A DNA stretch of 34,551 bases, taken from assembly GCA_964590575.1 (NCBI GenBank), contig CAZPWM010000024.1, forward strand, positions 1 to 34,551. The letters run 5' to 3'. The notes beneath the pieces were generated by a model. It did not search any database, was not told where the DNA came from, and saw only the letters and a program-made list of their open reading frames with translations. Made by a program: the position numbers and the translations under genes. Shown here piece after piece: positions 2,030 to 23,010 of the stretch (the stretch's first letter is position 1; the number at the start of each line of letters is the position of its first letter). This DNA comes from an uncultured archaeon (GTDB taxonomy: Archaea > Asgardarchaeota > Thorarchaeia > Thorarchaeales > Thorarchaeaceae).

Positions 2030-3022
2030 TTAGCTAAGAGTCGGTGGTTCTCTCACATCTGCATTCAGAATCTCCTGGTTGGTGATATCCACAAAGGGAT
2101 TCTTGATCCATATCGCAAATCCTACAATCGCTGGAGTCAGGTTGATTGCCATCAGAATGAGCGAGAACGAAACGATAAGTACCGGGTCAATATACAATCG
2201 AGTAAACATGAATAACAGTACCCCTTCTCTAATGCCGAGACCTTGAATGGTCACAGGTATTGCTGTCATCAATATGGTCAAACCCAAAGTAAATGTTAGG
2301 TAAATCCAATCAATTGCCATTCCTAGTGCGAGAGCTAGAACATACGCTTGCGCGATATAGAATACGAAAAGCAACGAAGCCAGTAGCATACTTATCGCTA
2401 ATCTTCTACCCCCAATTTCTGTAAGCATTGAAGGTAGGGTAAAGAACGACCTCCCCCTAATTCCTTCTTTCATCAAACGATTGAGTCGAGCTTGCATGAA
2501 TCTAGTCCAAAGCGTAGCCCTTAGGATGCGATAAAAAGTGTAACCTCCTAAAATCCAAATTCCTGCTAGAAGAAAAGCTTCGATTGTAATATTCACCTCA
2601 AGGATTAGTGCGATTGTAAGTATCCCGATGGTGAAGGGGACAACTGATCCAATTATTGCATCTAATAGGATACTGATTATAGACCTATCAACTAGATTGC
2701 CTCTGTGCTTCATATACGGGACTCTAATCAGATCACCGAAACTTCCCGGAATAACAAGATTAGCTAATTGAGCCAAGCATATCCCCTCAGTAGCCTCCTT
2801 TGTATTCAACTTCAAATCCAACCCCTCAGCTATGACTTTCCATCTTGCACCTCTTAATACAGTAATTGGTATCACAGACAGAAATAGTATGAGTGTCGGA
2901 AAGGGAGGGATTTCAAAGATGGTAGTCAGCAAGCTTTGAATATCAATTCCCATCAAAATGTAAATGAAAACGATAATTCCGATGAGTCTAGCGGCTTGTT
3001 TTAGGAGCCGGGTATATTTCAA
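2030..3022 (-). CDS. Lysylphosphatidylglycerol synthase TM-region / flippase-like (UPF0104) membrane protein
   Basis: Family-type motifs LRGARW, ANLVIPGSFGDLIR and IPVTIQGLGIREG; about 8 TM segments; TTG start with GAAGG upstream. Confidence 0.85.
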   Translation of the reverse strand: MKYTRLLKQAARLIGIIVFIYILMGIDIQSLLTTIFEIPPFPTLILFLSVIPITVLRGARWKVIAEGLDLKLNTKEATEGICLAQLANLVIPGSFGDLIRVPYMKHRGNLVDRSIISILLDAIIGSVVPFTIGILTIALILEVNITIEAFLLAGIWILGGYTFYRILRATLWTRFMQARLNRLMKEGIRGRSFFTLPSMLTEIGGRRLAISMLLASLLFVFYIAQAYVLALALGMAIDWIYLTFTLGLTILMTAIPVTIQGLGIREGVLLFMFTRLYIDPVLIVSFSLILMAINLTPAIVGFAIWIKNPFVDITNQEILNADVREPPTLS

Positions 3023-3243
3023 GTGCTGTACCTTCCTTCTAAATGTCTCGACAGATGCTTGAAGCGATGCAATTTATGCTTGATACATTTCAAGTAAATT
3101 GTAATATATCAATGAATTCCCATGATATTTAGTTGAGGATGGCGATTGGTTTTATCATCTAATCATTTTACCTTCAATTCGAAAAAAACACAATTGAAGA
3201 CGTCTTAATCTGACTGGTTTCTTTCAAGTTTCATCCAGCGGAT

Positions 3244-3283
3244 AAAAAAAAGAAGTTGAATTCCGGAGCCACTGCTCCGGAAT
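3244..3283 (-). terminator. Stem-loop plus T-tract
   Basis: Perfect 10-bp stem ATTCCGGAGC-CACT-GCTCCGGAAT (3260-3283), followed on the minus strand by TCAACTTCTTTTTTTT; 12 nt past the stop of 3296..3856. Confidence 0.75.
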
Positions 3284-3295
3284 AAAATCAATAGA

Positions 3296-3856
3296 CTATT
3301 CTTGGTAGCCTTTCATGTAGCCCTCTCGTTGATTCCATTTCTCCTCGAGGCGTTGCATGATTGTCCATAGACGATAAGTGTGGTTCCAAGCCTCGTCAAA
3401 CTTACCTTGGTTCATTTGGTCCTGGAATTCCTCCACGACGTCATTGATTGCACCAATATCGTCGATAAGAACTGCGTCAAACTCGTAGACTTGGTCGAGT
3501 TCTTTTTCATTGATCTTCTCCTTTGAACCCCATGCGGCATATCCGTAGTCCGCATACCTGATGGCTGATTCAATCTTGTCAGTTAGTGCGAGCATCCTGT
3601 CGAATGTTTCCCACGTCTTTGTGAGATTGTAATCTACAGCCATCATCTGTAGCTTCTCAAGGTCCTGCTTGACTAGCCGAAGCTGGTCAGCCATGAACTC
3701 TCGAAGAACCTTGTCAGCGGCGCGTCTTTCTTCTTTCTCTTGATACCCGTGCCAGCCGGGGATGTAGTGAGTGATCTTGCCAAAGAAGCCTCCCTTGATA
3801 TCCTTAGCAGCCTTCTTTCTGATTCGCTTGGCAATTGGGTCAGTTATTTTACCCAT
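3296..3856 (-). CDS. Conserved hypothetical helical protein (IPGxxGY-x-EKExRRxADK family)
   Basis: Motifs IPGWHGYQEKEERRAADKVLR, IRYADYGY and LDQVYEFD recall a widespread uncharacterised archaeal/bacterial family. AGGAG SD upstream and its own terminator. Confidence 0.8.
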   Translation of the reverse strand: MGKITDPIAKRIRKKAAKDIKGGFFGKITHYIPGWHGYQEKEERRAADKVLREFMADQLRLVKQDLEKLQMMAVDYNLTKTWETFDRMLALTDKIESAIRYADYGYAAWGSKEKINEKELDQVYEFDAVLIDDIGAINDVVEEFQDQMNQGKFDEAWNHTYRLWTIMQRLEEKWNQREGYMKGYQE

Positions 3857-4033
3857 GCTATTAATTCTCCTGAATGTTTACAACCCCTGAGCATGACTAA
3901 TGGGGTTGACCTGCTTGGGACTATACTTGAGTCCTTAAAAAACATGTTACAACTGTGTCCACCTTTTCTTTTGGCCTTCAACAATCGCCGACAAGGCGTT
4001 GCTTAAATACCATTACTGGTTGCTTCGAGAACT

Positions 4034-6013
4034 ATGACAGAGCAGGGCGTAATCCGTAAACCGGACTGGAAAATTAATCCTGCAAAGATGCGGTCCATTG
4101 CGGATGAAGAATTTGAGAAAGCAAAGAAGAAGCTAGATGAGATTGCTAAAACCCCCTCTGGAGAAGTTAGTCTTCAGACCCTCAAGGATTTCGAAGAAGT
4201 CTTGGGATCAGATGACCTTCTTGGGCCGCTTCTCTTCATCAAACATGTTTCGACAGATAAAGATCAACGCGACATGGCTGATGAAATTGAGAAAGACGCA
4301 CGTAAGTTCATTAATGAAATTTGGGGAAGAAAAGACCTCTATGACGTTATAGTTCAACTTGAGCCCGAGATAGACTCTCTAGACCCTGAGGAAAAGACAC
4401 TCCTAGATAAGACGATCAAAGATTTTAGACACCGAGGAGCTGCACTTGATGATGACAAAAGAAAAGAATTCCTCGAGATAGCCAACAACATCACTGTCCT
4501 CCAATCAGAATTTGAAAGAGTTCTCAATGAGATTACAACGACTATTCCATTCACCGAAGAGGAGCTAGAAGGAGTTCCTCCTCCAGTTTATGAGAAATTA
4601 GAGAAAGATGGTGACAAGTATCTCTGCCCACTTGACTATCCTGTTTATTTTCCTGTCGTTAACTACGCAAAGAATCCTGAAACCCGGAAGAAGATGATGA
4701 TCATCTCCTATCAAAAAGGTGGAAAAGAGAATAGCGAACGCCTTTCAGATATTCTTGCCCTTAGAGAACGACAAGCAAAAATGCTCGGATTTCAAAATTT
4801 TGCAGAATACGTAATCTCTAGGAAGATGGCAAAAACCCCAAAGAGAGTATTCGATTTCATGAATGACCTGAAAGAGAAACTTACTCCTTTGAGTGAAAAG
4901 GAAATTCTGAAGCTTAAGGAACTCAAATCAAAGGAACTGAACATCCCTCTTGAAGACACCAATTTTGAGATTTGGGATATTTTCTATTACCATGAGATGC
5001 TAAGGAAAGAGGAATACGATGTGGATCAAAATGAAATCAAAGAGTATTTCCCAATTGATTCAGTAATTAAAGGAGTACTTGATGTCTATCAGACAGTGCT
5101 CAATCTTGAGTTCAAAGAATCTAAGGAACCTAACGTCTGGCATGAAGATGTGAAAGAGTTCAAAGTCACTGATAAGACCAATGGACAGACACTAGGTGTG
5201 TTCTACCTAGACCTCTATCCACGAGATGGGAAGTTCAAACATTACGCTGTCTTCGGCTTTATGGATCGGCACGTCAAAGATGGAAAAGCATACCTTCCAA
5301 TTTGTTCAATGGTATCCAACTATGACAAACCAACTGATGATACACCATCATTACTCAATCATAACGATGTTGAAACATTCTTCCATGAATTCGGTCATAT
5401 AATGCACATGATTAGTAATCAGGCAAACTATGCACGATTTGGACTAGAGGGGGTACTTCCAGATTTCATTGAAACTCCCTCTATGATGTTTGAGAACTGG
5501 GCCTGGAAGGAAGAGGTTCTGAGTAAACTGTCAGGTCACTACAGAGATCCCAAAAAGAAGCTCCCATCAGACCTACTCAAACGAATGATTGATGCCAAGC
5601 TACTTGACGTTGGTGTACTCCAACTAAGACAGGTTGCATATTCTTTGATTGACCTAGTATATCATACTGAAGGTGCTGAAGATACAAGTGCTGTATTTAG
5701 AAAACATTTCAGTGAAACTACAGGTTTCATGATGCCAGCTGAAGTCAAAATGGATGCTGGTTTTGGGCATTTTGCGAACCCTGGCTATACAGCTGGATAC
5801 TACAGCTACCTTTGGTCCAAAGCTTATGCTGAGGATATCTTCACCAAGTTTGAGAAGAATGGATTCATGGATTCGAAGACGGGGACTGAATACCGTCAGA
5901 AGATTCTTGCTCCCGGTGGAAGTCTAGACCCTGATGAAATGGTCATAAGTTTCCTTGGCCGAGAGATGAACGCAGATGCATTCATGAAGTCTCTTGGATT
6001 GGACAACAAGTGA
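4034..6013 (+). CDS. M3A family metallopeptidase (thimet oligopeptidase/neurolysin-like)
   Basis: FFHEFGH zinc motif, FYLDLYPRDGK, DFIETPSMMFENW (third ligand Glu), YTAGYYSYLWS, YRQKILAPGGS; 659 aa. Confidence 0.95.
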   Translation: MTEQGVIRKPDWKINPAKMRSIADEEFEKAKKKLDEIAKTPSGEVSLQTLKDFEEVLGSDDLLGPLLFIKHVSTDKDQRDMADEIEKDARKFINEIWGRKDLYDVIVQLEPEIDSLDPEEKTLLDKTIKDFRHRGAALDDDKRKEFLEIANNITVLQSEFERVLNEITTTIPFTEEELEGVPPPVYEKLEKDGDKYLCPLDYPVYFPVVNYAKNPETRKKMMIISYQKGGKENSERLSDILALRERQAKMLGFQNFAEYVISRKMAKTPKRVFDFMNDLKEKLTPLSEKEILKLKELKSKELNIPLEDTNFEIWDIFYYHEMLRKEEYDVDQNEIKEYFPIDSVIKGVLDVYQTVLNLEFKESKEPNVWHEDVKEFKVTDKTNGQTLGVFYLDLYPRDGKFKHYAVFGFMDRHVKDGKAYLPICSMVSNYDKPTDDTPSLLNHNDVETFFHEFGHIMHMISNQANYARFGLEGVLPDFIETPSMMFENWAWKEEVLSKLSGHYRDPKKKLPSDLLKRMIDAKLLDVGVLQLRQVAYSLIDLVYHTEGAEDTSAVFRKHFSETTGFMMPAEVKMDAGFGHFANPGYTAGYYSYLWSKAYAEDIFTKFEKNGFMDSKTGTEYRQKILAPGGSLDPDEMVISFLGREMNADAFMKSLGLDNK

Positions 6014-6064
6014 AAGAAAGAACATTGTAGGGCAGATTGCTACTGCCCTACCTGTTTTTGTTTT
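6014..6064. terminator. Probable bidirectional stem-loop terminator between convergent genes
   Basis: GTAGGGCAG-ATTGCTA-CTGCCCTAC (6027-6051, 9-bp perfect stem), flanked by an A-rich run on the left and a T-rich run on the right. Confidence 0.7.
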
Positions 6065-6073
6065 ACGAAATAT

Positions 6074-7273
6074 TTACCAGAGCTGGTACTGTCTCTTGAC
6101 AAAACCTTCCCAGACTCTGGGAAGCTTGGCAATGACTTCCTCTGTGATAGACTCTACTGAGGCCTTCACCTTCTCTACGTCGCACTCTCCATAGAGCTCG
6201 ACGTTGATAGCCTTTGGCTCAATGATAGGTGCACCAATCTGACTCACCAGATAGCAGTATACTTGGGAAAGGTCTGGGTGTTCCTTGTAGACTCTCTCAG
6301 TGATTTCTCTGGCTGCGACATTGTATGTCTTGCCTACATGTGACACAGGGTTCTTGCCAGCAGCAGCTTCGAGTGTCATTGGTCTGTATGGAGTAATAAG
6401 ACCATTTGCACGGTTACCCCTGCCTACCTGACCATCGTCCCCGTGTTCTGCAGATGTTCCAGTTACTGTTAAGTAGAATAGATTATCCTTCGGACTGTCT
6501 GCGGTATTGACACTGACTTCAGTTTCCATATCAGTGATCTTGGCCGCGTGGTCTTTCACAAGATCGGTGATTCCCTGCATGACACTTGCGTACTCATCCT
6601 TGTCCTTTGTTTCGCTGGAGATGATAGCTGCAGCGACTTGCATGTGGATTTTGTCATCTATTCGGGTCCCCATGATCTTGATATCCTCACCTATCTGAGG
6701 CCATTGCTTCTTCACTTTCTCGCTGTTCAAGAGTTGCTCTGATTCGAGAGTGATCAACTCAGTAGGTGAGAAAGGCGCGTAGCCAACACCAAAGCTAGTA
6801 TCGTTAGCTCGTGGGATACCGGTCTCCAGATCGAAGTTACCAACGAGGTCGGTGCTACCTGCTCGTATCTTGTAATCAATGATAACGTCTGAGTGAACAT
6901 CAAGATGTGGGAGATCTTTACTCAACCACTCTTTTGTGTGTTGGACTGCAAATTTTCCAACTGGTACTTGGCGCTCGTAGTCTTTGTCAACAAGATCAAC
7001 AGCTCGCCCGCTCATCAAAATGTAAATTGGTTCAATAACATCGCCGCCTCCAAACCTGGAGTTGGATTGTCCCCCAACGAGAAGGACCTTGTCCACATTG
7101 TGGTGCTGAACTTGACCAAAAATCTCCATGTAGTATTCGCTCAAGCGAACTGACAGTTCCTCTGCCGCTTTATCGCAAAGGGTATCGGGATGACCTTTTC
7201 CTTTTCTTTCGACAATCTCAACGGGGAGTTTGTCAACCGAAGGTCCGGCTCCGCGTGTGACTTTCAAATTCAT
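6074..7273 (-). CDS. mat: S-adenosylmethionine synthetase, archaeal type
   Basis: VEIVERKGKGHPDTLCD, HHNVDK, ANDTSFGVGYAP, GEDIKIMG, TVTGTSAEHGDDGQVGRGNR, GKNPVSHVGK; 399 aa. Confidence 0.97.
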   Translation of the reverse strand: MNLKVTRGAGPSVDKLPVEIVERKGKGHPDTLCDKAAEELSVRLSEYYMEIFGQVQHHNVDKVLLVGGQSNSRFGGGDVIEPIYILMSGRAVDLVDKDYERQVPVGKFAVQHTKEWLSKDLPHLDVHSDVIIDYKIRAGSTDLVGNFDLETGIPRANDTSFGVGYAPFSPTELITLESEQLLNSEKVKKQWPQIGEDIKIMGTRIDDKIHMQVAAAIISSETKDKDEYASVMQGITDLVKDHAAKITDMETEVSVNTADSPKDNLFYLTVTGTSAEHGDDGQVGRGNRANGLITPYRPMTLEAAAGKNPVSHVGKTYNVAAREITERVYKEHPDLSQVYCYLVSQIGAPIIEPKAINVELYGECDVEKVKASVESITEEVIAKLPRVWEGFVKRQYQLW

Positions 7274-7349
7274 AATAAATCAACTCGTCTTTTCCACCCG
7301 GCGCAGTGGTAAGTGTATAAAAGAATTACGTTATATCACGAAAAAATAC

Positions 7350-7374
7350 TTATGGAGAATAATATTTCTCATAA
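7350..7374. promoter_or_regulatory. Imperfect palindrome, candidate operator in the mat / HTH-CBS divergent promoter
   Basis: TTATGGAGAA-TAATAT-TTCTCATAA (arms match with one extra G) in an AT-rich 127-bp divergent intergenic region. Confidence 0.4.
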
Positions 7375-7400
7375 TATATTACTAATAGGAATAATAATTC

Positions 7401-7934
7401 ATGATTCTAACGACTGATGACTTAAGAAAACTGAGGCGTAGGTTTGGTCTGACACAAGCAGAACTTGCTATTGAGATAGGAGTATCGCAATCTTATATTG
7501 CTAGGCTAGAGAGAGGAACCATCGATCCAAAATTGTCCCTAGTGAAGAAGATAGTGGACAAGCTCACGAGAAAGACCGGGAAAACTTGTTCGGAGATAAT
7601 GACTGTTAACCCGAAAACAGTCGCTCCTCGAGATGTAGTTTCGACAGCAGTATCGTTGATGCAAAAAAATAACTATTCTCAACTTCCTGTCTTACGAGGG
7701 ACACAGGTAGTGGGTCTCATCACGGAATGGGACATCATTCAGAACTTACAACATAATCTCAACGAGATATCTGTTGAGGCTGTCATGAGTCCAAGCGGCA
7801 CACTCATGGTTGATGAGAATACTTCAGTGGATGTCATCGTTCCGCTCTTTGAAAACTATCAAGCAGTCCTTGTCCTGACTCAAGGACGTATTCAAGGAAT
7901 CATCACACGGTCGGACATATTCAAGCTGATTTGA
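7401..7934 (+). CDS. XRE-family HTH transcriptional regulator with a CBS-domain pair
   Basis: LRKLRRRFGLTQAELAIEIGVSQSYIARLERGTIDP (HTH_3), then CBS motifs YSQLPV...VVGLITE and GIITRSD. Confidence 0.93.
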   Translation: MILTTDDLRKLRRRFGLTQAELAIEIGVSQSYIARLERGTIDPKLSLVKKIVDKLTRKTGKTCSEIMTVNPKTVAPRDVVSTAVSLMQKNNYSQLPVLRGTQVVGLITEWDIIQNLQHNLNEISVEAVMSPSGTLMVDENTSVDVIVPLFENYQAVLVLTQGRIQGIITRSDIFKLI

Positions 7935-8104
7935 GCAACCAACAGGTATAATGCTCTTCGTCATGTGCTAGGTCGAAGAAGGGTAGATACAAGTGAAATG
8001 TTCTATAATGCAGAATCGCCAATGTTCTATTTCGAACATACCTGAGATTTGTGCCCCCGCAGAATGTCTTATATGGTATAAAAAGAAGAAACTGTTGGAA
8101 TATA

Positions 8105-8761
8105 ATGGCACACTACCTAGATACACTTGACGACCTCCGGGAGGGGCTCGATACCTTCGTGGAGAAGTGGGCTAATATACAAAGGAAGTCTGTGAAAGCC
8201 ATTCAAGCAGTCACTAATACAATCATGCAGATTGAGCACTTGGATGGACCTCTAGGTAAGCTTGAATCTTTTTCTAACATTCGCGAGGATGCAAAAGGAA
8301 TTCTTCTGGTCAATCTTTACGACAAGCTTGTACCAGCACTTGAAACCTCGATTAGAGAGTTTACAAAGCTTATGCACATGTTTGAAAACCTTCGTCACAC
8401 ATCCTCAAAGATACAGACCTTGACAGAAACTATGCGTGGTAACCTCCAGGACTCTCCTGAGCTTGAAGACTTGGTTGGATTCCTCGATTTGATTATGATT
8501 AGTGTGCGCGACATCTTGAACATGTATGAGTCAGAGTTCCTAGTTAAACTAACTATCTTCCGGGATTTTGAGGAAGGCGCAATCGAGATTGGTGTTGTCA
8601 GTAACTACTTGACAATCTGGGGTATTGAGCCAAATATCGAACCGCACGCAAGAGACAAGTTGCTCAAGGACCTTGATGAACATGTAGAACTTCTTAGAGA
8701 TGTCTTCGCTGGCAAGACTGGTATCAGAATTCCTGACACCTATAAGAAGATTCAACTCTGA
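8105..8761 (+). CDS. Helical-bundle protein resembling eukaryotic CINP / C1orf109
   Basis: 218 aa from the ATG at 8105 (the GTG at 8051 lies upstream of the TATA-like tract). C-terminal pattern MY..E..VK..I...YL..W..EP.IE matches CINP as recalled from memory. The CDS is likely real; the family call is tentative. Confidence 0.6.
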   Translation: MAHYLDTLDDLREGLDTFVEKWANIQRKSVKAIQAVTNTIMQIEHLDGPLGKLESFSNIREDAKGILLVNLYDKLVPALETSIREFTKLMHMFENLRHTSSKIQTLTETMRGNLQDSPELEDLVGFLDLIMISVRDILNMYESEFLVKLTIFRDFEEGAIEIGVVSNYLTIWGIEPNIEPHARDKLLKDLDEHVELLRDVFAGKTGIRIPDTYKKIQL

Positions 8762-8814
8762 TTTTAGATGAGTAAACCGAAAGAGATAACTCGTCGGACA
8801 CGAACAGTCTAAGT

Positions 8815-9396
8815 ATGAGTGACAGGCGCGATACCTCGTGGATTCGTATTTTTGATGATGTAATAGGTTTGATTGTAATAGTGGTCGGTATAGTGGCAAT
8901 ACTGGAGCTTGCCTTTAGTTATGTTTACGCGCTTGCGATTCTCTCAGTGGGACTAATTGCAATCGGTATTGCATGGGTAATTATGGGGATCTATGTTGTA
9001 CGCACAAATATCTATGCTCGATTATTTATGTTGATTACAGGATTTGCCGCAATCGCCATATCACTCATAGACTTCATTTTCTTCTCGCTCTCACCCGATA
9101 TTCTGATTTATTATCCTGCATTAGCGATGCTTCTTGTTGGTTCTTCACGAATTGTACTTGGTTTCCTTCTTGGTGGTGTACCCCTCTGGATTCAGATGTT
9201 ACAGATACTCTCAGGAATCCTGACCATTAACTTGGCTGCTTTCGTTTTTATCTTCTCAAACATAGAATTCTCTGCTATGATTGTTCTACTTGTTATAGCA
9301 TTCATTGCCAATGGTCTGGTGAGACTGATTGTGAGTCGTACTGATATAAAGCAGAAGATGATGCAGCCGACAGACGAGGCTAGCCCATCCGTGTAG
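8815..9396 (+). CDS. HdeD/DUF308-like membrane protein
   Basis: Six TM helices arranged as repeated hairpins with G-rich motifs; 193 aa. Confidence 0.7.
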   Translation: MSDRRDTSWIRIFDDVIGLIVIVVGIVAILELAFSYVYALAILSVGLIAIGIAWVIMGIYVVRTNIYARLFMLITGFAAIAISLIDFIFFSLSPDILIYYPALAMLLVGSSRIVLGFLLGGVPLWIQMLQILSGILTINLAAFVFIFSNIEFSAMIVLLVIAFIANGLVRLIVSRTDIKQKMMQPTDEASPSV

Positions 9397-9491
9397 TCCT
9401 TCTAGATATACACGTCAAACATTAGGACTGCTTGGATCTAATCACATTTGCACATTCAAGTAACAACTCTACACCTTCAAAGCAGAATCAT

Positions 9492-11225
9492 CTATTCAGA
9501 ATCGGATTTTATCACACGTTCATGCATTTGCATTCGATTCTGATTCTCTTCCAAATCCGCTTCAATCTCATTTCGTAAGTCTTGATAGGCGCCCTCAGGT
9601 AATCTTCCTGATTCGAAATCTTTCTGATAGAATATTAGTTTCTCTTTCAGAAGTTCCTGTCGTATAGAGAGTTCTTTAATTCTTGCGCGTCTTTCAGATA
9701 CTACCCTTCTAAGTTCATCTTCAAGGGTGAATATTTCTTCTTCTAGTTCTGCCTTCATTCGATTGTATGTTTCAAGTTCTACATTCCCCTCTGTGTACAA
9801 ATCAACAAGGCGTAGAAGCGCCTGTCGAGTTGCGTTTCTATGAGCAGTGATTTCACGTGCTCGATCTTCTTTTTCTATTAATCCAAGAGCCTTCGCAAAG
9901 TATGGTGTTGTGAGACCCTTGACTGTAAGACTTACTAATAGCATAATTGAAACAATAGAATAAATTGTCGGACCTATGATATGAGCATTCTCAACGAGAA
10001 TGAACGTGCCTGGATTAAATGGGTCTTCATGAGGAGTTACAATAGCAGTAACAGCAATAGCTGCAAGGGCCGCATTTGTGACACCTTTTACACCTGCCCA
10101 GCTCAGGAAGAGTCTATCCTTCAGATTCACTGACCGGTCAAAAGAGGTGACGAGGAGAACTGATGCAGGTCTAGCTACAAAAATAATGAGAAAAGCAGTT
10201 ATTAGACCAAGTATGATGATTGTGGGATTATTCACGATAAAGGCAATGGTCATCGATTCAGGTTGATTGGCAATCAAAGGAACGCTGAGAGTGTAGCCTA
10301 AGAGTATGAATACACATATTTCAAACAAGAATGATACATTCTTCATGACTCCACGCATGGACCTCTGAGGAAGTGGAGGTAGTTTCATTCGTTTAAAATT
10401 CGCCATGAAGATTCCAGCAAAAACTGCAGCGAGAGCTCCTGGATGAACACCTAATCCGCTGAAGAGTTCTCCAAGCCCAAATGCGAGTACAGGCGTTGTA
10501 GCTGTGAGGATAGATACATTTGTGTCATCAGCTGCTCTCAAGATTGCCCAACCTACAACGCGGGCTACGAGAAAACCCAATAACACACCAAATCCCATGC
10601 TGCCAAGAAATTCTAAGATGACCATCTCAAATGGTTGGAAGAGCGCCGGGATGACCAGTGGTTCGAAGACAGTGATGACAAGTATGACCGCTGTCGCATC
10701 GTTGAATACAGCTTCACCTTCAAGGGTTGAGAACAACTTGCGCTTTACTCTTACTCCACCTGATTCAAGAACAGCAAAAAGAGCCGCGGGATCAGTGGGT
10801 GAGAGGATAGCTCCTATCAGGAGTGCAATGGCAAGCCCAATCTGGGTTGAGAGTTGAATAGTAAATCCAGCTATCAAAGATGTCGCTAGTACTCCAGCAG
10901 TAGCAAGTAAGAGCACGTTTCTAAGTGAAAGCCGAAGTTCCTTTAGATTCATATTCAAGCCTGCATAGAATAGAACACATGCTAGTGTCAACTGAGCTAT
11001 AAAGTCGAATCCAGCAATTTGTATTAGCTCCTCCCCAGGTCCCTGAATATTAAGAAGTACCTGACCAATAATGATACCAGCAACGACTAACGGTATTGGA
11101 TGTGGAATTCGATATCTTTCTGCAACCTTTGCTAGTGCAACGCCTAGAATCAAAAGAGCCGCAACAACGAGCAGTACGTTAGGTTCTAGACTCTCAGCAC
11201 CATTTTGTAGGAGCAAGAGGATCAA
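9492..11225 (-). CDS. Cation:proton antiporter, CPA1 (NhaP-type), with a coiled-coil C-terminal tail
   Basis: LIGAILSPTDPAA, LEGEAVFNDA, FVARP, SWAGVKG; about 13 TM helices plus a roughly 125-aa charged helical tail. TTG start overlaps the upstream TGA by 4 bp. Confidence 0.93.
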   Translation of the reverse strand: MILLLLQNGAESLEPNVLLVVAALLILGVALAKVAERYRIPHPIPLVVAGIIIGQVLLNIQGPGEELIQIAGFDFIAQLTLACVLFYAGLNMNLKELRLSLRNVLLLATAGVLATSLIAGFTIQLSTQIGLAIALLIGAILSPTDPAALFAVLESGGVRVKRKLFSTLEGEAVFNDATAVILVITVFEPLVIPALFQPFEMVILEFLGSMGFGVLLGFLVARVVGWAILRAADDTNVSILTATTPVLAFGLGELFSGLGVHPGALAAVFAGIFMANFKRMKLPPLPQRSMRGVMKNVSFLFEICVFILLGYTLSVPLIANQPESMTIAFIVNNPTIIILGLITAFLIIFVARPASVLLVTSFDRSVNLKDRLFLSWAGVKGVTNAALAAIAVTAIVTPHEDPFNPGTFILVENAHIIGPTIYSIVSIMLLVSLTVKGLTTPYFAKALGLIEKEDRAREITAHRNATRQALLRLVDLYTEGNVELETYNRMKAELEEEIFTLEDELRRVVSERRARIKELSIRQELLKEKLIFYQKDFESGRLPEGAYQDLRNEIEADLEENQNRMQMHERVIKSDSE

Positions 11226-11842
11226 ATCTCCGCAAGGATTTCAGCATACACCTTCAGGTAATCAGATATTTTTTCAAGTTCCCTCACGATTTTTCTCATC
11301 ATATAACATATGAAATCAGACTCTCCACCAGTTGCAACAGTGATCTGTCGACATATAATGATGTTATCCTCATCAATCTCTCGCTCAAGCCTGATAACTG
11401 ACTGCAGTCCTTCTGCCATCCCCTCAGGATTATTGCTACATTCTCCAGTCATCTTCTGGAGTGCGAGATATTGATTCTTGATTTTACTAGTTATTGACTT
11501 TAGAGAAGTCATATACACCTCACCAAAGGATTCTCCACTAACCATATCAACCATCATCAACACATATGCTAGGGTGGATTGGGTTCTGTGCATATATGAT
11601 GCCGCGGCTTGTGTAGCAATTCCAAGATCATTTCTAGGGAGGTTCTCTGAAAATCTATACATTTTGACCAAGTTCCTGAAATACTTCGAAACCGTTTCTC
11701 TGAGTGTATCCCATGGGATTTCCTCCTGATCACAATCTCCACAAAGACGGTTTTCTAAAATCTCAACTATCTTTGATTGTTCTTCAAGAATTTTACATAG
11801 GAATGTAAGAACTTCGATTTTATCTAACGGGTTTCTACTCAT
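11222..11842 (-). CDS. PhoU/DUF47-like helical-bundle protein
   Basis: C-terminal half has IRLEREID...IVRELEKISDY, the PhoU/DUF47 repeat signature; the N-terminal repeat is degenerate. Confidence 0.65.
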   Translation of the reverse strand: MSRNPLDKIEVLTFLCKILEEQSKIVEILENRLCGDCDQEEIPWDTLRETVSKYFRNLVKMYRFSENLPRNDLGIATQAAASYMHRTQSTLAYVLMMVDMVSGESFGEVYMTSLKSITSKIKNQYLALQKMTGECSNNPEGMAEGLQSVIRLEREIDEDNIIICRQITVATGGESDFICYMMRKIVRELEKISDYLKVYAEILAEI

Positions 11843-11848
11843 ATTCTC

Positions 11849-12097
11849 TCACTCCTTTCTGTCAGATATCTTCCATGACATGCTGAGATTGAAATGAATG
11901 AAGCTTTTCCGAAGATTAACTTCAATCCCCGTTTCTACTGGTTCTCCTAATGGGAGTTGAATGAACCCTTCCTTTAGACTAGGCATAGGTAGTTCAAGCT
12001 TCTCACCATCCCGAATTTCGGATGCAATTCTTTCGAGTAAATCAGCTAACCCAACAAGAGTTCTTTCTTCCTCGAATTCATAATCATCAATACGCAT
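11849..12097 (-). CDS. Amphi-Trp domain protein
   Basis: 82 aa: FEEE, helix LADLLERIASEIRDG, then alternating beta strands ending in LSMSW (terminal Trp). GAGGTG SD upstream. Confidence 0.75.
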   Translation of the reverse strand: MRIDDYEFEEERTLVGLADLLERIASEIRDGEKLELPMPSLKEGFIQLPLGEPVETGIEVNLRKSFIHFNLSMSWKISDRKE

Positions 12098-12187
12098 TCT
12101 TTGACACCTCAGAATGTAATAGCATGTTCTAATTGGACTTGGATACGCTCCTTTTTAGCCTAACTCTTTTTTGATACGAATCAAGAT

Positions 12188-13612
12188 TCATTTTATTTCT
12201 GTATGAGACTCACTTCTGATTATGTTGGGTTGTCCCAAATCACTCGGGGGATATGGCATTGAAACAATGTTCATCTTTTCCAGTGCTCTTCGAAGGATTA
12301 GGACTCCAATAACACCTGAAATAAATGAGGCGAGGAGAATCGCTCCTTTTGCAGCGGCGAGCAAACTCCCTGATAGCGATAGTGAGGCAATAAATGTGGA
12401 TATAGTAAAACCGATACCCGCTAAGAATCCTGTACCTATCATAATTTCCCAATTCACACCTTCAGGTAATCCTAGAACTCCAAGTTTTATCGGAATCCAA
12501 GTGAACAATAATATCCCCACTGGTTTTCCAATTGTTAAGCCAATGATAATCCCCAATGTAATTGGGTCAAGGAATTCAATAAGAGATATGTTGAACAAAA
12601 TAATTCCTGAATTCGCTAGTGCGAAAAATGGTATGATAACGAATGCTACCCATTTGGTCAAAGCATGCTCAGCGAGTTGAAGTGGTGTTTCCACATCTCT
12701 GCAAGCTAGTCGTAGAGTTTCGGAGGACTCTTGAAAGTCCTTGGAGTCTATGTTTTCAATTCCGTTTGCTGCTGAATCTTGAATTCTCTTTACTAAGCTT
12801 GAACTGATAATGATGAACTCGGAATAATCAATCTTGGTAGTGGCAGGTATTGTTAATGCAATAAGAATCCCTGCGACAGTTGGATGAACACCTGAAATCA
12901 GGAATTGCAGCCAAACAAGAATTCCAAGTACTGCATATATGAGAAGTTGCCTAATTCCAATTCGATTCATGATTGTCATTAAACCTAGTAAAGCCAATCC
13001 TACAAAGAGCGGAATTAAGAAGATTTCACTTGTGTAGAACAAAGCAATTATGAGAACGCCACCAATATCATCTGTTATAGCTAGGGTTGCTAGAAAGATT
13101 TTCAGTGAAACTGGAACCTTCGGACCAAAGATGGAAAGAAGTCCAAGTGCAATCGCAATATCTGTAGCAATTGGAATTGCCCATGCACTAGCTCCCAGAC
13201 TACCTGGTGGATTGAGCGCAAGAAACAGAAGCCCTGGTACAAGTATACCCCCTGCAGCTGCAATTATTGGAGCAAAAGCCGCCTTAGGTTTACTTAGTTC
13301 ACCAATTAGCACTTCACGTTTAATCTCAAGTCCAATGAGAAAGAAGAAAAATGCCATGAGAAGATCGTTTATCCAAAATACTAGTGGTTTTGTCAAACTA
13401 TAAGTCCCAATATTGATGCCAATGTTTGTTTCCCAGAGTGAAAGGAAATGCAATCCTATGAAGGAGTTTGATATAATGAGTGCAACAACTACGCAAATTA
13501 GAAGGATGACACCACCGGAAGCCTCAAACTGGATAAAATTATTGAAGGGCTCTATAACCCGCAATATTCTATTTTGATGGCCTTTCTTGAAGTGTCTCCT
13601 TTTTGGTGGCAT
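12188..13612 (-). CDS. nhaA: Na+/H+ antiporter NhaA
   Basis: WINDLLMAFFFFLIGLEIKRE, WAIPIATDIA, LAITDDIG (catalytic DD), SGVHPTVAG, GKPVGI, LAGIGFT. Confidence 0.96.
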   Translation of the reverse strand: MPPKRRHFKKGHQNRILRVIEPFNNFIQFEASGGVILLICVVVALIISNSFIGLHFLSLWETNIGINIGTYSLTKPLVFWINDLLMAFFFFLIGLEIKREVLIGELSKPKAAFAPIIAAAGGILVPGLLFLALNPPGSLGASAWAIPIATDIAIALGLLSIFGPKVPVSLKIFLATLAITDDIGGVLIIALFYTSEIFLIPLFVGLALLGLMTIMNRIGIRQLLIYAVLGILVWLQFLISGVHPTVAGILIALTIPATTKIDYSEFIIISSSLVKRIQDSAANGIENIDSKDFQESSETLRLACRDVETPLQLAEHALTKWVAFVIIPFFALANSGIILFNISLIEFLDPITLGIIIGLTIGKPVGILLFTWIPIKLGVLGLPEGVNWEIMIGTGFLAGIGFTISTFIASLSLSGSLLAAAKGAILLASFISGVIGVLILRRALEKMNIVSMPYPPSDLGQPNIIRSESHTEIK

Positions 13613-21019: not shown

Positions 21020-22270
21020 ATGTTCAAGTTTCTGAAATCTGATCCAGTTAAGGCTGCCAAGAAATACATTGAGAAAGCACTCATTGAGATTGAGGAAGGG
21101 TATCCAGAATATGCAAGCGTGGAATATGAGAAAGCCGCCCGCAAATTTTTAGAAGTTGAACAAACAGATTTTGCTGTCAAATATTTTCGAGAAGCCGCAT
21201 ACTGTGCGTTGGAAAACAATGACCACTTTAGATGCTCTGAAATGAAGATAGCTGCTGCAGAATGTCTCCTCCAAGAAGGTCGATATGATGAAGCTGGAGG
21301 TCTCTTTTCAGAATCCTCTGATCACCTTCATCGAGAAAAGAAGGTGAAGGAATCTAATCGTTCCTTGGGAATTGCTATTGCTGGTTACCTTGCGGCGAGA
21401 AACTTCAACACAGCTACAAATCTGATGCGAAAAGCTGAGAAGCGCCTAAAGGAAACCTCTTCAAAGAAGGATTCTCTCTACTTACTAGCTGAATTATGCG
21501 TGAAGATACTATGTGAGGGCATTGATGTTCCATCTGAGGAATTTGAGAAAGCTGCTAAGAGCGCAAAACCAAATGAAACTGAACAACCACTTATTGACTT
21601 TCTGATAACTTCAACAAGACTGGCTATCAAAACTGAAATCATTCTAGACTGGGCGGGAGCGCCTCAAGAGGAGGTCAATGTTAAAGAACCTGTTGAGATT
21701 GAATTAAGGTACAAATGCCCCACTGAAGTTCAGATTATTGATCATAGACTTTCTCTTTCAAACAGTGTCATCATGACGAAGGAACCAGAATATACTCAGA
21801 ATCCTGCTAAGGAAGAATCATGGCTGCTTGAATTTAAACCAGTCCTGAGTGGTTCAGGTAGTATTGGCCCCCTCACAGTCACTCTTGAAGGTGACAGAGT
21901 ATTAGTCAATAAGCACAGTAACACTTTGGAATTCACGATTGCCAGAGCTCCATCCAGTATAGCCTTGGAAGTGAAGCCCGAACGAGTCTCTTGCAATCTC
22001 GGAGAGGAAGCTGTGTTGCAGGTAACTATTCTAAACGAGGGTGATGGACCAGCTGAGAATATCGAGGTAAAAGTCGAACTCTCTGATGGTCTCGAGATGT
22101 CGCTTGGCATCGAAGAGAAACTGATTAATTTCTTGGGTAGTGGGGAGAATATACGTTTCCAAGCATTTGTGAGGGCTGTTGGTCAAGGCGAGGAACTGGT
22201 CACCATCAAAGTGATAGATGGACGTTCAGGTCAGGAAGTTGTGAAAACGTCGATGGTTAGAATAGGTTAG
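21020..22270 (+). CDS. SNAP/TPR-like alpha-solenoid fused to two Ig-like (CARDB/DUF11-type) domains
   Basis: Residues 1-200 are Ala-rich helical repeats (ASVEYEKAARKF, AVKYFREAAYC, AGGLFSESS). Residues 205-416 have alternating beta patterns including VTILNEGDGPAENIEVKVELSDGL. Confidence 0.8.
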   Translation: MFKFLKSDPVKAAKKYIEKALIEIEEGYPEYASVEYEKAARKFLEVEQTDFAVKYFREAAYCALENNDHFRCSEMKIAAAECLLQEGRYDEAGGLFSESSDHLHREKKVKESNRSLGIAIAGYLAARNFNTATNLMRKAEKRLKETSSKKDSLYLLAELCVKILCEGIDVPSEEFEKAAKSAKPNETEQPLIDFLITSTRLAIKTEIILDWAGAPQEEVNVKEPVEIELRYKCPTEVQIIDHRLSLSNSVIMTKEPEYTQNPAKEESWLLEFKPVLSGSGSIGPLTVTLEGDRVLVNKHSNTLEFTIARAPSSIALEVKPERVSCNLGEEAVLQVTILNEGDGPAENIEVKVELSDGLEMSLGIEEKLINFLGSGENIRFQAFVRAVGQGEELVTIKVIDGRSGQEVVKTSMVRIG

Positions 22271-22272
22271 TC

Positions 22273-23010
22273 CTACTTCTTCCTTCTCTTTTTCTTCTCA
22301 ATCTCCAATCGGATGCTAAGGCAGGCTCCCATAACCTGCTCGATGGTTTCCTCTTCTTTAAATGCTTGAAGCATGTCATCTGCATCGTCAAGATTATTTT
22401 GAACAAGAGCCTCACTGAATGAGAGAAGGGTCTGAAGCCAATCCCATCTTGTTTTTGGAATAATCTTCTTTGCCTTCTCTATCCTCTCTTTGGCTTTGTC
22501 CATCTTTTCAATCGTGGCAAATCCCATTGCAGCGAGTGATAAGTTGATCACAGCTCTTTCGGCATTACCATCGTTGATTGCTTTGTCTGCAGCTTTGTCA
22601 TAGAGATTTCCCATATTTTCAGCTGCAGTGAGAAAATATTCTCGATTCCCTGTTTTATGGCAAGAGTATGCTGCCCAAAGATAGGCTTGGGCTGCTGTTT
22701 CTGTCATCCTCTCCAAAAGAGCCTCCTTGGCTGCGTTTTCATAGAGTGTCATCGCAGTGGAAAAGTCACTAACTTGTCGGTATTGTGTAGCTGCTTCGAG
22801 ATATGCAGTTGCCGCAGATTTATGATCGTCTTGCTCAACCCGATCCTCCGCATACATATGATAATACTCAGCGGCTTTCTTGGTCATCTCGAGCACTCTT
22901 TCAAGAAAACAGCTTGCTGCATTTTTGAACTGGTTCGCAGCTTGATAGTATTTATCTCTCTCAAGAAACTCATTGGCTAATCTTTCCCATTGAGCACATT
23001 CATTTTCCAT
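22273..23010 (-). CDS. Alpha-SNAP-like TPR protein
   Basis: 245 aa, all helical; repeats AANQFKNAA, AAEYY, AATAYLEAATQY, AMTLYENAA, AAQAYLWAA; basic C-terminus KKKRRKK. Confidence 0.75.
   Translation of the reverse strand: MENECAQWERLANEFLERDKYYQAANQFKNAASCFLERVLEMTKKAAEYYHMYAEDRVEQDDHKSAATAYLEAATQYRQVSDFSTAMTLYENAAKEALLERMTETAAQAYLWAAYSCHKTGNREYFLTAAENMGNLYDKAADKAINDGNAERAVINLSLAAMGFATIEKMDKAKERIEKAKKIIPKTRWDWLQTLLSFSEALVQNNLDDADDMLQAFKEEETIEQVMGACLSIRLEIEKKKRRKK

Follow-up and report, generated by a model that had tools for sequence, protein, structure and literature searches.

Genes of the locus and the encoded protein

The window analysed in this study, a stretch of 34,551 nucleotides from an uncultured archaeon of the Asgard family Thorarchaeaceae, carries genes that include those for archaeal AdoMet synthetase, Nre, HMG-CoA reductase and RACo. 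The gene of interest encodes a protein of 245 amino acids with similarity to the SNAP family and is preceded, at a distance of 397 bases and on the same strand, by the HMG-CoA reductase gene. The positions of the gene, of the parts of its product and of the convergent neighbouring gene are listed in Table 1.

Table 1. Positions in the window of the SNAP-like gene, the parts of its product and the convergent neighbour
Feature	Position	Strand	Description
Gene with SNAP-like product	22273..23010	minus	245 aa; ATG start; stop codon 22273-22275
Residues 1-59	22834..23010	minus	Helix 4-17 and a single long helix 21-59
Residues 15-180	22471..22968	minus	TPR-like hairpin repeats; portion matching SNAP by sequence; internal repeat
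Residues 126-245	22276..22635	minus	C-terminal half of six helices, superposing in the predicted model on the Sec17 C-terminal domain (170-291)
Residues 239-245, KKKRRKK	22276..22296	minus	Polybasic tail; the counterpart position in SNAP is acidic
Convergent neighbour	21020..22270	plus	416 aa; weakly SNAP-like helical front half and DUF11-like beta-sandwich rear

The product is a soluble, all-helical protein that is rich in Ala and Glu and acidic, with a pI of 5.3 that falls to 4.9 when the last ten residues are left out. Its predicted model (mean pLDDT 93.6, pTM 0.83) consists of 11 helices and contains no strands. An earlier description of the gene, made without database searches and referred to here as the sequence-only reading, had identified the product as an alpha-SNAP (Sec17)-like protein and had quoted several strings from it, all of which are present in the open reading frame: AANQFKNA (residues 24-31), DHKSAATAYLEAATQYRQ (62-79), FSEALVQ...GACL (198-231) and the ending KKKRRKK. 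It had further stated that the protein lacks both the N-terminal membrane loop and the acidic, Leu-ending tail of SNAP. Both statements are borne out: the first 20 residues consist of a charged helix and a turn of three residues, and the C-terminus is basic.

The 245-aa protein matched none of the families of NCBIfam and PADLOC, and Rfam and tRNA scans of the window gave no matches. Interpretations of the gene as part of a defence system or a mobile element were rejected in view of the lack of PADLOC matches and the location of the gene in a stable housekeeping synteny. In the RNA-library search, one 250-base contig from one library, of a kind that can also contain DNA, was placed on positions 22652-22901 with 3 differences and gives a weak hint that the gene is transcribed; the rest of the window was without RNA cover, a gap that proves nothing. 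Two other open reading frames of the window showed sub-threshold similarities. The C-terminal 90 residues of a 577-aa Na+/H+ exchanger (9492-11225, minus strand) gave a CdvA-like coiled-coil match of 26.7 bits (cut-off 30), and a 236-aa product (8051-8761, plus strand) matched the C1orf109-like family, a eukaryotic ribosome-biogenesis family, at 22.5 bits (cut-off 27).

Distribution and conservation of the family

A word-indexed search yielded 135 homologs at E<=1e-3, which bear Thorarchaeota names; the 120 that were listed are 241-274 aa in length and 64-93% identical. In a scan of one genome per species, 70 loci were found. Among 400 genomes of the phylum that were scanned, the gene was present as a single full-length match in 78 of the 85 genomes of its own Asgard family and in the one genome of the sister family, and the seven genomes of its own family without the gene have a completeness of 65-87%. 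At the 33 loci holding all five of the genes compared, the mean identity to the window copy was 75.8% for the SNAP-like protein, 81.5% for HMG-CoA reductase, 75.1% for prolyl-tRNA synthetase (ProRS), 62.0% for the convergent neighbour and 46.5% for the product of an AlaX-like gene. The SNAP-like gene is a real and strongly constrained gene that is about as conserved as that of prolyl-tRNA synthetase.

In a HMMER search of 1.84 billion representatives, E<=1e-3 was reached by no more than 12 proteins. Five of these belong to the same family or are fragments of its members; the remaining seven comprise TPR/NB-ARC proteins of very large size, archaeal multi-repeat proteins that score 100-132 bits against the Pfam SNAP model, and two eukaryote-type SNAPs of full length (246 and 304 bits). 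Weak matches in the phylum scan led to distant homologs of 251-253 aa in two other Asgard families, in which 3 of 5 and all 6 genomes, respectively, encode them. These distant homologs and the Thorarchaeota family can be aligned from end to end (hhalign 96.9%, E 2e-10, 1-220 to 1-234).

All 35 aligned sequences, distant homologs included, share the cysteines C5 and C34, whereas C117 and C230 are conserved in the Thorarchaeota family and both lost in the sister lineage. Judging by the helix positions in the model, C5 and C34 should face each other across the first hairpin, and the conserved cysteines may possibly form a disulfide or a metal site. The polybasic tail is also a lineage-specific feature: 32 of the 35 aligned members have at least five Lys or Arg among their last 14 residues, and the tail is absent from P0123, P0159 and P0160, which represent the sister lineage and the distant homologs.

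Sequence relationship to the SNAP family

The Pfam SNAP model (PF14938) matched the 245-aa protein at 29.8 bits (curated cut-off 25; E 5.3e-7), with the best stretch at residues 18-94. This match is short and covers 74 of the 282 profile positions. All 35 family members matched the model at E<=0.01, while any other repeat family was matched by at most 3 of them. As for the TPR models, the protein itself (P0001) had no match at E<=1, and any single TPR_n model was matched at E<=0.01 by at most 2 of the 35 members. One of the distant homologs, P0160, matches TPR_12 at 40.7 bits, and the wider group therefore borders on TPR. In control searches, the same SNAP model matched proteins in 4 of 14 control prokaryote genomes, bacteria among them, and exceeded its cut-off in two; in addition, it gave 30.6 bits to a plain TPR_12 protein encoded in the same genome as the window. 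Therefore, the Pfam match alone is not diagnostic, and an alignment of 22 true SNAPs was built for profile comparison.

Compared with these 22 SNAPs, the Thorarchaeota family profile gave an hhalign probability of 89.5% (E 2e-6). A profile comparison with the SNAP family had been proposed as a check by the sequence-only reading, and when the distant homologs were added to the profile, it gave 97.2% with an E-value of 3.3e-11 over 212 columns (15-237 to 29-252). The TPR_12 protein of the same genome, which is a single sequence and hence weaker as a control, reached 75.6% (E 2.4e-5) against the SNAP profile and 11.6% (E 0.0026) against the Thorarchaeota family. A profile search of the PDB placed alpha-SNAP first (E 6e-8), followed by consensus TPR designs (2.4e-5) and Pins/LGN (1e-4), with Sec17 (6.6e-4) and gamma-SNAP (0.011) further down. 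In an ESM Atlas feature search, the nearest clusters were the family's own, two Asgard SNAP/TPR clusters (0.93) and gamma-SNAP (0.92), which we regard as leads only. At the level of sequence profiles, the protein is related to SNAPs, with a likeness greater than chance would give.

This relationship has no single register. Two placements of residues 15-121, on SNAP 29-118 and on SNAP 108-213, score almost the same: hhalign aligned residues 15-180 to SNAP 29-185 at 97.2% and, as an alternative, residues 15-121 to 108-213 at 93%. The protein also matches itself (9-147 to 71-194 at 90%) with a shift of approximately 60 residues, and the ambiguous register is due to this internal repeat, as expected in a repeat protein. 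The pairings of short strings made by the sequence-only reading differ in outcome. The alpha-SNAP strings that it quoted were seen in HMMER alignments to solved alpha-SNAP chains. The pairing of AANQFKNA with AANMFKMA was not reproduced, because hhalign places the strings 7 residues apart within the same helix and HMMER places them one helix apart. The pairing of DHKSAAT... with KHDAAT... was recovered by hhalign with the profile that includes the distant homologs.

The TPR_12 protein used as a control has a neighbourhood of its own. It is 291 aa long, scores 83 bits against TPR_12 (against 30.6 bits for SNAP) and ends with an acidic tail in which Asp, Glu and Leu are abundant; on contig C4 of the genome (L085, 594-2286), the start of its gene is overlapped by the gene for a 277-aa small GTPase (Ras 39.6 bits, Arf 32.5 bits).

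The C-terminal bundle and the predicted fold

The sequence of the last 60-120 residues shows no significant likeness to SNAP (hhalign 0.6-13.6%), and a search of the PDB with the C-half profile yielded four matches at E<=10, none of which was a SNAP. The C-terminal pairing with alpha-SNAP that the sequence-only reading had drawn stands in part. It is the top-scoring placement, was obtained in three profile comparisons and is supported by structure; its P-values are weak (0.048 and 0.0094, and 0.097 in a further comparison), and the realigned alignment obtained with the profile that includes the distant homologs places the segment elsewhere. The P-value of 0.0094 belongs to the comparison in which stand-alone copies of the module were added, where residues 157-231 were placed on SNAP 203-278.

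At the level of structure, a Foldseek search with the full model gave HAP40, alpha-SNAP and Sec17 as top matches (E 3-5e-4), with ordinary TPR proteins within a factor of ten, and in a ranking of whole-model folds the SNAPs tie with Rap, LGN and designed repeats. Residues 1-28 are omitted from most structural matches. Residues 59-245 align with Sec17 115-292 at 3.0 Å over 152 residues. When the C-half was compared alone with 48,161 chains, Sec17 was the single top match, and the alignment took in 115 of 120 residues; in another fold comparison of the C-half, Sec17 occupied the top six rows of the ranking. Its lead over the other solved chains for the end domain is about 2-2.5 Z, a margin obtained with predicted models. 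The predicted fold matches the Sec17 C-terminal domain best. The SNAP-like C-terminal bundle described by the sequence-only reading holds structurally, since the end domain of the predicted models superposes on Sec17 better than on other solved chains, and the outcome that had been named as fatal to the claim, a failure of the bundle to superpose on Sec17, did not occur.

The structural register of the C-half, with an offset of about +45, agrees with the weak sequence placement of residues 157-231 on SNAP 203-278, while in the N-terminal part the sequence alignment and the structure alignment differ in register. Structurally, residues 29-184 correspond to Sec17 19-175 and residues 126-245 to 170-291. 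From these two registers, the protein would be about 50 residues, or roughly one repeat, shorter than Sec17.

In the distant homologs, the C-terminal module of approximately 100 residues is separable. It is found as a stand-alone 111-aa open reading frame (L127, 2231-2566) or at the N-terminus of proteins of 311-421 aa (L129, 1127-2389; L092, 255-1190), which also contain a linker rich in Pro, a winged helix of PCI-like type and, at the C-terminus, a zinc ribbon.

Search for SNARE and Cdc48 genes and the convergent neighbour

SNAPs recruit NSF to disassemble SNARE bundles, and the sequence-only reading had called for a search for SNARE-like proteins. The genome from which the window derives (91% complete) contains no SNARE domain above the cut-off: the best score against PF05739 was 12.6 bits (cut-off 26.8), a level that was also reached in 11 of 14 control genomes. 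Three CDC48_N genes were found, and all of them are located on contigs other than that of the window. The suggestion that the protein is an adaptor delivering helical bundles to a Cdc48-like ATPase is thus left unsupported, and the earlier interpretation as a whole is partly supported.

Only in one distant Asgard family does a 252-aa homolog lie near cdc48, at a distance of about 4 kb and three genes. The gene order in this family (L133 of genome G117, 2446-13427) is cdc48, padR, a gene for a 329-aa SNAP-like protein, an ACT-domain gene, a 421-aa gene, the 252-aa homolog, a 224-aa paralog, argG and argH. The orientations are mixed, and the arrangement is one of proximity, not an operon. The 421-aa product shows near-cut-off matches to a PCI-like winged helix and a zinc ribbon; a search of the genome of the window with this single protein as the query found no counterpart, and such a query does not show absence.

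The convergent neighbour of the SNAP-like gene ends tail-to-tail with it, with 2 bases between the ends of the two genes. Its product is soluble, and the helical front half weakly resembles both the SNAP-like family (hhalign 68.6%) and the SNAPs (38%; Pfam SNAP 16 bits). The neighbour is adjacent to the SNAP-like gene at 66 of the 70 loci, and the other four loci end at or just past the SNAP-like gene. However, the whole region is syntenic, with the HMG-CoA reductase, AlaX-like and ProRS genes present at 59, 55 and 53 of the 70 loci, respectively, and the adjacency of the neighbour is therefore not special. In the sister lineage, the two genes are 6.7 kb apart and on one strand. The family profile of the neighbour gave no match in two genomes of other Asgard families.

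Interpretation

We consider it likely, with a probability of roughly 60%, that the 245-aa protein is a shortened and divergent member of the SNAP-fold class that acts as a lineage-specific protein-binding scaffold or adaptor and is no working equivalent of SNAP in SNARE disassembly. Because the working parts and the partners of SNAP are missing, a binding scaffold in the shape of SNAP is the most fitting description. The protein would be a cytoplasmic, acidic, all-alpha solenoid in which a few SNAP-type TPR-like hairpins are followed by an end domain with the topology of the Sec17 C-terminal domain. A partner of helical or extended shape would bind in the groove and on the faces of the solenoid, and the polybasic tail, which is specific to Thorarchaeota, would provide an additional electrostatic contact with an acidic surface, for example a lipid, a nucleic acid or an acidic protein.

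Alternatively, the protein could be an ordinary TPR-type repeat protein, whose likeness to SNAP is that of any antiparallel alpha-solenoid with a capping end and involves no specific common descent. The response of the Pfam SNAP model to bacterial proteins and to a plain TPR_12 protein, the ambiguous register with its internal repeat and the non-significant C-terminus are consistent with this explanation. We nevertheless regard it as rather unlikely, given that the family fits the SNAP profile (E 3.3e-11) far better than it fits the TPR_12 protein of its own genome (E 0.0026), that all 35 members match Pfam SNAP compared with at most 3 for other repeat families, and that a search of 48,161 chains with the C-half ranked Sec17 alone at the top (115 of the 120 residues aligned).

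Two further explanations assign the protein a more definite partner. The first sees in it a functional archaeal precursor of SNAP that would bring substrates in the form of helical bundles to a Cdc48-like AAA ATPase. This would fit with the SNAP-like fold and its end domain, which in SNAP faces NSF, and also with the very strong conservation, the three CDC48_N genes of the genome and the location of a distant homolog about 4 kb from cdc48. However, the gene has no linkage to cdc48 in its own genome, the genes between cdc48 and the homolog in the distant family are three and of mixed orientation, no SNARE-like domain was found in the genome of the window, and the charge of the tail is opposite to that of the NSF-activating end of SNAP; such a role is very unlikely. 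We judge it just as improbable that the protein and the product of the convergent neighbour, which combines a SNAP-like helical domain with two Ig-like domains, form a two-protein scaffold. The tail-to-tail adjacency at 66 of 70 loci, the presence of both genes in the family and in the sister lineage and the SNAP-like nature of both products would fit such a pair, but the synteny extends over the whole region, convergent genes cannot share a transcript, the genes are separated in the sister lineage, and the neighbour evolves faster (62.0% versus 75.8% mean identity).

SNAP and NSF belong to the core machinery of membrane traffic in eukaryotes, and their origins in prokaryotes are unsettled. 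Our literature search found no report on an Asgard relative of alpha-SNAP/Sec17, and the available part of a preprint on Heimdallarchaeota SNAREs does not mention NSF. A conserved Asgard protein with a predicted Sec17-like end domain, together with its relatives, would offer a concrete basis for questions about the origin of the SNAP fold and its role before SNAREs. It is conceivable, albeit as a speculation with long odds, that the whole SNAP fold with its end domain predates SNAREs and NSF in Asgard archaea, that the Thorarchaeota family and its relatives of 251-253 aa are survivors of the stock from which eukaryotic SNAPs came, and that they may already serve a Cdc48-type ATPase as adaptors. 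The case is built on predictions together with profile scores of weak to moderate strength; for the present it serves as a pointer for structural and binding studies and does not amount to a finding on eukaryogenesis.

Comparison with known systems

Several classes of helical proteins can be compared with the 245-aa protein. It does not conform to the 34-residue repeat models of the classical TPR clan (TPR_1, TPR_2 and TPR_12). Matches to MIT domains span no more than approximately 60 residues and are typical of TPR-like three-helix units in general. The PCI-type subunits of the proteasome lid and the COP9 complex (Rpn, CSN8) have a winged-helix domain that is missing from this protein, which has no PCI match and whose model is without strands. 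The TPR regulators of the RRNPP type (Rap, Rgg and PrgX) are, unlike this protein, bacterial receptors for peptide pheromones with extra N-terminal domains; their Z-scores for the C-half are below that of Sec17, and a sequence match to them is absent.

The SNAP family (alpha-, beta- and gamma-SNAP and yeast Sec17; PF14938; PDB 1qqe, 2ifu, 3j96 and 9cru) is all-alpha, with TPR-like hairpins followed by a helical end domain, and provides both the best profile match and the best fold match of the C-half; both proteins are soluble and acidic. The differences are nevertheless considerable. The protein has 245 residues, whereas SNAP has about 290, and the identity in structural alignments is only 7-18%. 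Sec17/SNAP has 14 helices in all, with an N-terminal sheet of nine. The 245-aa model has 11 helices, lacks the full N-terminal sheet of nine and has one long helix (residues 21-59) where SNAP has a hairpin. The alpha-SNAP string ffsglfgg, seen in the PDB profile alignment, is the N-terminal hydrophobic membrane loop, for which the 245-aa protein has no counterpart. The SNAP tail is acidic with a penultimate Leu and stimulates NSF, whereas the tail found here is polybasic, and the genome that encodes it contains Cdc48-type genes only, with no NSF matches and no SNARE matches above the cut-off. The huntingtin-associated protein HAP40 (PDB 6x9o and 9pn0) is the top Foldseek match of the model (E 3.3e-4, TMq 0.46); it has a SNAP-derived fold and functions as a scaffold without NSF or SNAREs.
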